12,143 nt of DNA from a virus: positions 470,014 through 482,156 of IMG/VR virus record IMGVR_UViG_3300028558_000016. The stretch is one strand, 5' to 3'. Numbering within the stretch: the stretch's first letter is position 1; every line of letters begins with the position of its first letter. The notes below the pieces were generated by a model. It did not search any database, was not told the origin of the DNA, and worked only from the letters and a program-made list of their open reading frames with translations. Below are positions 4,616-5,621 of the stretch, one piece after another. The position numbers and the translations under genes are program-made.

Positions 4616-5323
4616 ATGAAGAGAATTAAATTGTTTGAAGCATTCATCAACGAAACTGATGATCTCGATAAGGATTTTTACACTCCAAAAGATATGGAAG
4701 AATTCAAGAAGTTTCTTGTCGATGAAATGGGCGTTAAAGCTGATCTCATAGACAAATGCATCATGAAGACAACCAAGGGACATTCAAGAGAAATCGGTCT
4801 CATGGCAATGTGGTTAAATCACAAAGCAACAGCTGAAGGAAAAGAAATCATCGAGAAATACATTCAAGATAAAATAGTTCCTAACTTTCCTGAACTCGCT
4901 TATTTAAAAGGAGAATCAGTTAAAGAATCCAATACTCTGTTTTCTTTAAAAGAAAACAAAGCAGAAGTAAAAGTTCCAGAATCAATCGATGGTGTTGCAG
5001 TTCAACAAGTAGGATTTTATGATTTCAAAAAAGCTGTCATCAAGAAAGAAGGAATAGTTCTTCTTGGAACAGGTGGTGATATTGCTGAATGGGTCAATGG
5101 AGTAACAAAGGTTCTCAATGATGAAGGAATCGCAAAAGGAACTACAAAAGATCTTTGGTCTGAAATTTATGTCATGAAAACAACAGGTGGAAGATCTGAC
5201 ACTGCATTGGTATTCGCCGAAGGAGATCACATCAATGTTGGAAAGATGGCAATGTGGAGATTGAAATTCGGTGATTGCTCATGGATCAGCGATTATTTAG
5301 ATAATTACGCAAAACAACACTAA
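4616..5323 (+). CDS. Hypothetical protein, 235 aa, with N-terminal MKRIKLFEAFINE peptide (capsid-targeting-sequence-like); candidate internal or injected protein
   Basis: ATG at 4616 opens a 235-aa ORF that has no competing frame and is tightly packed with its downstream genes. The N-terminal motif is shared with the ORFs at 5346 and 6404. I could not assign a family to the C-terminal part (GTGGDIAEW...GRSDTALVFAEGDHINVGKMAMWRLKFGD). Confidence 0.6.
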   Translation: MKRIKLFEAFINETDDLDKDFYTPKDMEEFKKFLVDEMGVKADLIDKCIMKTTKGHSREIGLMAMWLNHKATAEGKEIIEKYIQDKIVPNFPELAYLKGESVKESNTLFSLKENKAEVKVPESIDGVAVQQVGFYDFKKAVIKKEGIVLLGTGGDIAEWVNGVTKVLNDEGIAKGTTKDLWSEIYVMKTTGGRSDTALVFAEGDHINVGKMAMWRLKFGDCSWISDYLDNYAKQH

Positions 5324-5344
5324 TTAAAAAACAACACTAATTAA
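5311..5344 (+). repeat. Perfect tandem duplication, 2 x 17 bp (AAAACAACACTAATTAA), spanning the stop codon of the 4616 gene and the gap before the 5346 gene
   Basis: 5311-5327 and 5328-5344 are identical. The first copy encodes the C-terminal ...KQH plus the stop codon, and the second copy forms the intergenic spacer. Confidence 0.8.
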
Positions 5345-5345
5345 T

Positions 5346-5621
5346 ATGAACCACATTAAATTGTTTGAAGACTTTCAAGGTAAACCAGATGCTTTACAAG
5401 CATTCCTTATAAAAATCAATGCTTTGCCTGAAAATGTAATCAGAGATATAATGGGAGATGCTGAATATATTGACACTCCTGGAAATTACGATGAAGAAAA
5501 GAAAGACTACGATGACGTTGAAGACTACATGCAACAAAACATGGGAACTGAATCGTATAAAAAATTGATTGATTGGTATCACGAAAACCCGGACAAGGTA
5601 GAGAAAATCATGTCCAAGTAA
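5346..5621 (+). CDS. Small acidic hypothetical protein, 91 aa, N-terminal MNHIKLFEDF (CTS-like)
   Basis: ATG at 5346. The 16 nt ATTAAATTGTTTGAAG (5355-5370) are identical to 4625-4640 in the 4616 gene. The protein is strongly acidic (about 21 D/E versus about 11 K/R). Confidence 0.55.
   Translation: MNHIKLFEDFQGKPDALQAFLIKINALPENVIRDIMGDAEYIDTPGNYDEEKKDYDDVEDYMQQNMGTESYKKLIDWYHENPDKVEKIMSK

Follow-up and report, generated by a model that had tools for sequence, protein, structure and literature searches.

In phage T4, a capsid-targeting sequence (CTS) sends internal proteins (IPs) to the prohead core (PMC9026906; PMC3012670; PMC5694885). The CTS, MKTYQEFIAE, has 10 residues, of which 4 and 7 serve targeting and 8 and 10 processing, and gp21 cuts after L/I-X-E (PMC9026906). 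The hyperplastic IP loci of T-even phages are characterized, in the parts of Repoila et al. (1994) relayed by PMC2839356, PMC12373910 and PMC3012670, by variable genes with a common leader; the genes, restricted to two small loci, have a conserved intergenic early promoter and an AT-rich stem-loop (PMC2839356). The PeSL cassettes of RB49-type phages (Arbiol et al. 2010, PMC2839356) are ~100-bp non-coding regulatory elements flanking ORFans (open reading frames, ORFs, without relatives), and their insertion, deletion and replacement by short-homology recombination have been proposed and partly shown (PMC2839356). In phiKZ, 201phi2-1 and SPN3US, a gp21-related protease trims N-terminal propeptides after x-E from many head-internal proteins (PMC5694885). 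Here we analyze two adjacent cassette genes, gene 1 and gene 2, and the 13-residue leader with which their products begin, in a 12,143-nucleotide stretch of viral DNA (IMG/VR record IMGVR_UViG_3300028558_000016, positions 470,014 to 482,156; the whole stretch is referred to below as the window).

The leader occupies the extreme N-terminus and has the consensus M-K-[H/Y/N]-[I/V/L]-K-L-F-E-x-F-[I/L/V]-N-E. Across 29 kb of the contig that contains the window, 21 of ~49 genes start with it, and nearly all of ~17 consecutive small genes in the sheath-to-tube stretch open with MK[H/N][I/V/L]K.[F/Y]E.F[L]NE. A scan of IMG/VR with the back-translated pattern M-K-x-h-K-L-F-E-x-F produced matches on at least 118 viral stretches. 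Among the matches listed, 149 of 153 opened ORFs of at least 40 amino acids (aa), and 143 of these 149 ORFs lacked an upstream in-frame ATG. At the positions left free by the pattern, the same 149 listed ORFs had H or Y at residue 3, I, L or V at residue 11 (92 ORFs), N at residue 12 (59) and E at residue 13 (96), and no conservation was detected past residue 13. The absence of upstream starts and the restriction of conservation to residues 1–13 identify the leader as a short peptide at the extreme N-terminus, as is the T4-type CTS. The tripeptide [ILV]-x-E began at residue 11 in 62 of 122 pooled proteins, a 33-fold excess over the per-position background of 1.5%, and was mostly followed directly by A or S. 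A control scan of 596 Gb of prokaryotic genomes was noise-like; 51 of 121 matches opened ORFs, and 3 of those 51 had [ILV]x[ED] at residues 11–13. Specific leader strings had zero occurrences in ~8 million full texts. These results point to a widespread leader on megaphage cassette genes, for which no description was found in the searchable literature.

The leader is under selection as a peptide and not as DNA. Within the leaders of this genome, the information content was 0.75 bits at codon position 1, 0.74 bits at position 2 and 0.39 bits at position 3, and 0.22 bits upstream of the ATG. Copies differed by synonymous codons (TTA, CTA, CTT and TTG for Leu; ATT and ATA for Ile), several codons were used at residues 11–13, and the amino acid substitutions were conservative (F/Y, I/V/L). 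A nucleic-acid element residing in the first 39 coding bases, whether a translation enhancer, an RNA signal or a recombination site, could account for the preference for A/T-rich codons in leaders relative to gene bodies (AAA 94% vs 56%, TTT 76% vs 47%) and would suit the A-rich regions without a Shine-Dalgarno sequence found upstream of the window's gene starts and of the array in L010, a segment of the same genome (A at −12, 1.1 bits; A often at −3). Such an element is very unlikely, however, given that third codon positions are about half as informative as first and second positions and that the leader varies by synonymous codons and by substitutions that preserve the character of the peptide.

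The A-rich upstream pattern resembles Bacteroidetes translation-initiation signals. A few convincing leader genes were also observed in L161, L162/L217 and L223, contigs (one of 254 kb) binned to metagenome-assembled genomes of Bacteroidetes, Sphingobacteriales or Cytophagales; these are probably mis-binned phage contigs, and provide a weak hint as to the host. An origin of the MKYLKLFENF variants in nucleocytoplasmic large DNA viruses was considered but is not supported, as no marker of these viruses was present among the top families of the neighboring genes.

The proteins that follow the leader (the cargo) are largely unrelated. After the leader was trimmed, no pair among the 21 cargoes of this genome matched (BLASTP E<0.01), and the 143 proteins pooled from this genome and IMG/VR formed 109 clusters. 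Cargo size spanned 57 to ~530 aa. Most cargo had no family, and the remainder comprised GNAT, ATP-grasp, 2H/Acb1, SET, zeta-toxin/PNK kinases, CHAP, cytidylyltransferases and methyltransferases; most was acidic (median pI 5.0, 72% acidic) and in this respect did not resemble the small basic IPs of T4. Homologous cargo domains without the leader were found in Cellulophaga phi17:2, Aeromonas phiAS5 and Bacillus phage G. The product of gene 1 was resolved into the leader, a helical N-domain (~residues 24–98), a disordered linker and an alpha/beta C-domain (~120–235); the N-domain segment (4639–4930) is absent from the related genome L130, and homologues of the protein reach the C-domain only. AlphaFold2 predicted a single helix with low confidence for leader residues 3–13 (pLDDT ~52), continuing as coil and packed against neither folded domain. 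The product of gene 2 matched only itself among 5.8 billion proteins, and its cargo segment (5376–5615, + strand) has nothing in common with gene 1. The unrelated cargo, the leaderless cargo homologues and the unpacked modelled helix together identify the leader as a portable module.

The same data bear on whether the leader genes might be a single fast-diverging paralogous family of which the N-terminal helix is the best-kept structural part. Tandem clustering is common in expanded families and would agree with this explanation, but the range of cargo sizes, the lack of detectable similarity, the unrelated Pfam folds of part of the cargo, the occurrence of homologous cargo without the leader and the position of the modelled helix and coil outside both confident domains render it less probable still than a nucleic-acid element.

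Further observations were made on individual cargoes. The C-domain of gene 1 (4931–5320) is widespread, with the pattern EGIVLLGxGGD...WRLxFGDCSWISDY..NYAxQH and a pLDDT of 93–97, and its homologues include Bacillus phage G gp597 and a Klosneuvirus protein. Fold searches with the gene 1 model returned no significant match in the PDB and only the Klosneuvirus homologue in BFVD. A leader gene at 14672–14935 of L010 encodes cargo matching Pfam LPD11, a 'large polyvalent protein-associated domain', which has leaderless homologues in Aeromonas T4-like phages, Cellulophaga phages and gut phages. The canonical leader is present on IMG/VR proteins with Acb1/2H cargo.

Comparison with the T4 CTS at a 3-residue offset placed the four functional positions of the CTS on leader residues F7, F10, [ILV]11 and E13. 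In T4, Asp at the position corresponding to E13 abolishes processing but leaves targeting intact. The pattern common to both is [Y/F]-x-x-F-[I/L/V]-x-E, in a peptide too short for a statistical test of homology. Long ORFs beside leader genes in IMG/VR included Peptidase_S77 (the gp21 family), Portal_T4, Gp23, Terminase_6N and UvsW. In L126, L094 and L081 a leader gene sits between the portal and S77 protease genes, and in L056 two leader genes lie between the protease and the major capsid protein (MCP) genes; these positions are the slots of T4 gp67/68 and gp22. In these ordinary-sized T4-core phages, the leader gene or genes in the head-module slot are the sole ones of the locus. The MCPs of these loci start with MANLINE-A, with WAPIIE-S also present, and are nearest to those of LR756500 and Lak phages. 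LR756500, the window's nearest complete relative, has the same arrangement of the large terminase subunit (TerL) and sheath genes, with the portal, S77 protease and gp23-like MCP genes ~27 kb from TerL; it has too few ORFs in code 11 and was used solely for locating head genes. Within the window's own genome, the sheath-to-tube array runs in the same direction as late structural genes, and gene 1 has I-N-E at residues 11–13.

Because the functional positions of the T4 CTS are matched, [ILV]-x-E is enriched and head-module genes are neighbors, we favor the interpretation, which on this comparative evidence we hold to be probable on balance, that the leader is a CTS-like propeptide. In this scheme the leader would bind the protein to the prohead core, the gp21-type (S77) prohead protease would then cut the leader off after [I/L/V]-x-E at residues 11–13, and the cargo would travel inside the head and leave it together with the DNA. 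The suggestion in a preliminary description of the window that the repeats fit recombination through conserved 5′ CTS-coding sequences is supported to the extent that the peptide encoded by the common 5′ block bears the hallmarks of a T4-type CTS.

Several observations weigh against a propeptide role. Gene 2 has QGK at residues 11–13, with L-F-E at residues 6–8 as its only such tripeptide. Neither an S77 protease nor an MCP was found in 36 kb of the window's contig, including a 7-kb right extension that contained no head genes, and none of the homologues of the L094 protease among the matches listed (120 of 3,642) came from the 482-kb contig. Leader genes far outnumber the three IPs of T4, so that it is unclear whether all of the products could be packaged, and the cargo is acidic where T4 IPs are basic. 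The likeness to the T4 CTS is a short pattern and not demonstrable homology. Finally, we know of no need for packaging of the GNAT, ATP-grasp, kinase and Acb1-like cargo.

Three of these features, namely the very many leader genes per genome, the acidic, enzyme-like cargo unlike T4 IPs, and the failure to find a protease in 36 kb of the contig, would be expected if the leader were a genuine portable tag with another function, such as docking to a phage or host partner, localization, timed degradation or incorporation into a different structure, and if gene turnover were ordinary accessory-gene flux. That explanation, however, accounts neither for conservation that stops exactly at [ILV]-x-E followed by A or S, nor for the match of four conserved positions to the functional positions of the T4 CTS, nor for the lone leader gene between the portal and prohead protease genes of ordinary-sized T4-core phages. 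We consider it unlikely, although it deserves more weight than the two explanations discussed above.

Two features of the head-gene loci were recorded in passing. The S77 proteases beside leader genes (L056, L081, L094, L126) are 580–675 aa long, vs 212 aa in T4, and have a conserved C-terminal extension (...SESKK.QI.AQSKYH...NFW.TRDLR...; 3,642 homologues); they may be protease-scaffold fusions. In LR756500 (185001–285000; L135/L136), only 46–71 ORFs of 60 aa or longer were counted per 50 kb in code 11 and TerL was in three pieces, which suggests stop-codon recoding and/or introns or inteins. The leader of LR756500 is a variant, MK[Y/F][I/L]K[S/P]YE.F.

The slot that holds the two genes was compared in five genomes: the window and L129, L130, L002 and L001, in which TerL is 87–90% conserved. 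The slot is bounded by TerL on one side and by a non-structural gene on the other, and its right neighbor is a conserved gene whose product begins MNIFD. In the window the slot contains gene 1 (leader, domain A and domain B) and gene 2; in L129, an orthologue of gene 1 and a different leader gene; in L130, the leader with domain B only and then a different leader gene of 173 aa; and in L002, a single unrelated leader gene of 211 aa. The slot of L001 is empty. The array as a whole is 6 kb long in the window vs ~1.5–1.7 kb in L001 and L002. Gene number and identity thus differ between close relatives inside conserved flanks, as in T-even hyperplastic loci, and the view that the two genes behave as cassettes is borne out.

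The boundaries of homology were located by blastn. Against L130, homology ends at 4638, inside the first copy of a 16-mer common to both leaders (Table 1). A second homologous block, from 4931 to 5375, takes in the rest of gene 1, the spacer and the second leader as far as 5 nt beyond the second 16-mer copy, and homology returns at 5616, at the stop codon of gene 2. The intervening segment (5376–5615) corresponds in L130 to 486 nt of unrelated cargo, so that the exchanged cargo begins precisely at leader codon 10 and ends at the stop codon, while a rare MN start in slot 2 is common to the window and L130. Against L002, homology ends in codon 13 of the leader, at 4654. For the sheath-to-tube array, comparison of L010 with L002 gave little more than one 225-nt cargo fragment and ~12 short matches of 30–60 nt, nearly all leader-to-leader and non-syntenic; the leader-to-leader homology had 75–87% identity, with exact runs of 16–19 nt. 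The breaks at 4638, 4654 and 5375 are therefore located at or just after the 5′ coding block, in line with the cassette shuffling through conserved 5′ CTS-coding sequences to which the preliminary description related the repeats.

Because no other dispersed homology is present in these densely packed arrays, the leader may also serve as the left-hand recombination linker for cargo exchange, a role that we find nearly as easy to credit as to doubt. Leader DNA would pair at the left in a cargo swap, and the next conserved block or the next leader would form the right-hand anchor. The pattern of breakpoints and short matches, as read from the alignments, fits such a linker. Every incoming gene brings a similar leader, however, and alignments will cross the leader wherever the crossover took place; the breakpoints are therefore no proof, and exact runs of 16–19 nt are short for homologous recombination. 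Overall, the interpretation in the preliminary description is partly supported. The broader scheme, in which Mahaphage-type megaphages would load dozens to perhaps hundreds of unrelated accessory proteins into the capsid by means of the tag, free them with the prohead protease and inject them as a quickly swappable arsenal, with the DNA of the tag as recombination linker, is put forward more tentatively.

The 16-mer, ATTAAATTGTTTGAAG, has only these two copies within the window, and in both ORFs comprises codons 4–8 (IKLFE) and one further base (G). Together with a 17-bp tandem repeat at the gene junction, this pair accounts for all exact direct repeats of at least 16 nt in the window, for which base composition predicts ~0.06 16-mer pairs per 12 kb and, for a perfect 17-bp tandem, well below 1e-4. 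Both repeats are present in L138 (ERZ27245388), a separate assembly from a different sample with 99.97% identity over 8,985 nt, and hence are not assembly artefacts; the positions given in the preliminary description for the block in codons 4–8 and for the duplicated 3′ end of gene 1, stop codon included, are exact. A third copy of the 16-mer was found at 19726–19741 of L010, in a gene that starts MKHIKLFEGFLNE, ~10 kb past the left edge of the window in the same genome, which demonstrates that the sequence is not specific to the adjacent gene pair.

The probability that two IKLFE copies would be identical at all 15 coding bases ranged from 0.013 (codon usage of the genome's gene bodies) to 0.08 (codon usage of pooled leaders). 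Three of the five IKLFE copies in this genome were codon-identical (P ~0.002), and the exact 16-mer was present in none of 87 other IKLFE leaders in the pooled sample (degenerate scan). A dedicated IMG/VR scan for the exact 16-mer at codons 4–8 located it on 10 other contigs, ahead of at least 5 different cargoes, so that the check proposed in the preliminary description, a search for the 16-mer beside different cargo genes, gave a positive result. Judged from these frequencies, the 16-nt identity is mostly due to peptide constraint; a modest remaining excess points to recent shared ancestry of some leaders or to gene conversion between them.

The 17-mer, AAAACAACACTAATTAA, is repeated head-to-tail without intervening sequence at the end of gene 1, the second unit forming the spacer. 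The junction is single-copy in L130 (...AAACAACACTAA-TTTGAAT-ATG) and the 3′ end is different in L129, indicating that the duplication is private to this genome and recent. Spacers in the array are mostly −1 to +1, vs 22 nt here. Since the repeat lies inside a block that is still homologous, and the breakpoints fall elsewhere (5375/5376 and 5615/5616), it was not left by a cargo swap, contrary to its earlier interpretation as a footprint of cassette recombination. The simplest cause would be a separate event of slippage or unequal exchange on microhomology. The duplication is probably neutral, although it might alter how gene 2 is translated. The description of both repeats as footprints of recent duplication therefore applies to the 17-bp repeat and not to the 16-mer, which reflects mainly conservation of the peptide.

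That the 16-mer and the 17-bp repeat are together the scars of a single, one-off local duplication is the least probable of the explanations considered. The restriction of the 17-bp repeat to this genome and the over-representation of the exact 16-mer within it would both be expected, but the leader encoded by the 16-mer occurs on ~170 other genes, the 16-mer itself recurs 10 kb away and before at least 5 other cargoes elsewhere, the two genes are otherwise unlike, and the 17-bp repeat is outside the exchange breakpoints.

The window is one part of a 482,059-bp metagenomic contig (ENA ERZ27245401, k141_1209612). The closest GenBank relatives of its TerL are those of 462–642-kb uncultured huge phages and Prevotella Lak phages (31–36% identity), and megablast of the whole window against GenBank phages gave no match. 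Of these, the 634–642-kb genomes and the Lak phages fall within the Mahaphage clade, for which Bacteroidetes are the predicted hosts (PMC7162821). By sequence, the genome of the window is Mahaphage/Lak-related. The relationship of its TerL to huge and Lak phages indicates that the locus is not a T-even IP locus. Assignment to a T4-like IP locus, as made in the preliminary description, was therefore abandoned: the genome is a 482-kb relative of Mahaphages and Lak phages, the flanks are TerL and a non-structural gene, and neither homology to T4 IPs nor promoter and stem-loop blocks were found.

With respect to regulatory signals, the intergenic spacers of 4616–6800 contained no terminator-like hairpin and 18 promoter-like sites vs 24 expected. 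The promoter and stem-loop blocks that flank each T-even IP gene have no counterpart here, there being 0.22 bits of information upstream of the genes and no promoter excess, nor was the PeSL arrangement of a sigma-70-like promoter and a G/C stem-loop on either side present at 4616–6800. Over 4616–9620 the sole terminator-like matches were two weak, intragenic ones on the minus strand (5676–5692 and 6061–6079), for which reason the genes of 4616–9617 look like a single transcription unit. Strong terminator-like hairpins were noted at 9621–9643 (bidirectional) and 10283–10310, and promoter-like motifs at 2698 (−), 4577, 5621 and 8959 (+), and 11976 (−). The sequence TATAAATA, 28 nt upstream of the sheath start, is the T4 late-promoter consensus, and [A/G]ATATATA[C/G] occurs just upstream of several gene starts, one copy being in the 29-nt block conserved with L130. 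Late-promoter-like motifs (TATAAATA, ATATATAC) were rejected as signals, their counts not being above chance.

The features of the window are listed in Table 1. The tail sheath gene comes after TerL on the same (−) strand. The two paralogous genes of 5651–5953 and 5988–6404 are alike over their first ~45 residues, MN[I/T]FD[I/V].KR....[F/Y]EE[F/W][L/M]K[N/D]RK...TEKG. This module also heads P0009, the C-terminal part of which is the C-domain of gene 1; it contains the T4-CTS-like TYEEFLKD and may be a second portable N-terminal module. The second paralogue includes a leader-like internal sequence, KHIKPFENFLNEKE, at 6159–6200, and its C-terminus gave a weak PHROG match to phrog_80, 'head maturation protease'. 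Kinship of the array proteins (100, 138 and 131 aa) with S77 proteases, suggested by this lead, was rejected, as they had no significant similarity to the long S77 protease fusions. The ORF at 6811–8952 (713 aa) matched no family and contains an S/T/G-rich tract close to its N-terminus; it is absent from L001, L002 and L130 and so itself belongs to the variable array. A 2H phosphoesterase-like gene at 11438–11962 (−) had a weak 2_5_RNA_ligase2 match, and its longest ORF opens with a degenerate leader, MAIETFKDFKVRK, although the gene caller chose an internal start.

Table 1. Coordinates of the cassette genes, repeats and neighboring features in the window
Feature	Position	Strand	Basis or remark
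Large terminase subunit (TerL), T4 type	2740..4554	-	PHROG and Pfam Terminase_6N matches; left flank of variable array
Divergent intergenic region between TerL and array, with GATATATAC at 4577	4555..4615	.	Kept in relatives (alignments); motif scan
Cassette gene 1, 235 aa, starts MKRIKLFEAFINE	4616..5323	+	ORF list
Leader of gene 1, MKRIKLFEAFINE; matches the whole consensus, with I-N-E at residues 11–13	4616..4654	+	
16-mer, copy 1	4625..4640	+	
Tandem unit 1: last three sense codons of gene 1, TAA stop (5321–5323) and TTAA	5311..5327	+	
Tandem unit 2, untranslated	5328..5344	+	Spacer lengthened from 5 to 22 nt
Cassette gene 2, 91 aa, leader MNHIKLFEDFQGK, acidic ORFan cargo	5346..5621	+	ORF list
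16-mer, copy 2	5355..5370	+	
Conserved intergenic block, 29 nt, with ATATATAC; right-hand homology anchor of the slot	5622..5650	+	Alignments, motif scan
Two paralogous genes (100 aa, 138 aa) with another N-terminal module (MNIFD.../MNTFD...)	5651..6404	+	Fixed array members, all relatives
Third leader gene of the window (131 aa, MKHLKLFEGFLNE)	6404..6799	+	Same leader, other synonymous codons
Gene with degenerate leader (MIKKFNDFKLDE)	9264..9617	+	L001 homologue has different neighbors
Conserved gene, 266 aa, right flank of variable array	10645..11445	-	Comparison with relatives

To our knowledge, the proteins that uncultivated phages inject, a class that includes the counter-defence proteins Ip1–3 of T4, cannot currently be predicted. 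Should the leader be a capsid-targeting propeptide, a simple sequence rule would list the proteins that huge uncultured phages bring into the cell, and their injected proteome would be predictable from sequence alone; the principle of the T4 CTS would then operate far beyond the T-even phages, on dozens of genes per genome. The 39-nt coding repeat offers a concrete substrate for fast turnover of accessory genes among conserved structural genes, and a tag recognized in many T4-core phages could become a protein-packaging handle for phage engineering. Should the tag have another function, a 13-residue signal on over 150 unrelated viral proteins, with no mention found in the searchable literature, would still be a targeting signal in need of explanation.

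Compared with described systems, the leader most closely parallels the T4 CTS. Each is a short peptide at the extreme N-terminus and the sole common part of otherwise unrelated proteins (IPI–III and Alt in T4); each has the order aromatic-x-x-F-[I/L/V]-x-E, with an L/I-x-E end that is followed by A or S; and each is found in phages with a T4-type terminase, portal, gp23-like MCP and S77 protease, with the leader gene in the head module in several phages. The leader differs from the CTS in having 13 residues instead of 10 and its own MK[H/Y][I/V/L]KL prefix, in occurring on dozens of genes per genome vs three in T4, and in its mostly acidic cargo with enzyme domains, where T4 cargo is small and basic. 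With the T-even IP loci, so far as the relayed portions of the original account describe them, the locus shares a number, order and identity of genes that vary among relatives, one leader on all genes, and conserved flanks. Here, however, the genes abut or overlap, nothing is conserved before the ATG, and arrays are situated at several places, including the sheath-to-tube stretch.

Like PeSLs, the leaders are short dispersed repeats that border ORFan cassettes in hyperplastic regions, but the repeat here is the first 39 coding bases, kept by selection on the peptide, and no promoter or terminator signals lie between the cassettes. The propeptides of phiKZ-type phages are also found in giant phages, and their paralogues can have identical N-termini (PMC5694885). 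Those propeptides differ in being mostly at least 100 residues long, with an S/A-x-E motif and in few paralogous families, in contrast to one short universal tag. Polyvalent proteins were reportedly characterized by Iyer et al. in 2017 as large phage proteins with LPD domains that are thought to be delivered into the host; an LPD11 domain is present on one leader gene of this genome, but here separate small genes each have their own leader, as opposed to one giant fusion. Overall, the locus appears to be a larger-scale variant of the CTS/IP principle, and not a T4 IP locus by homology.

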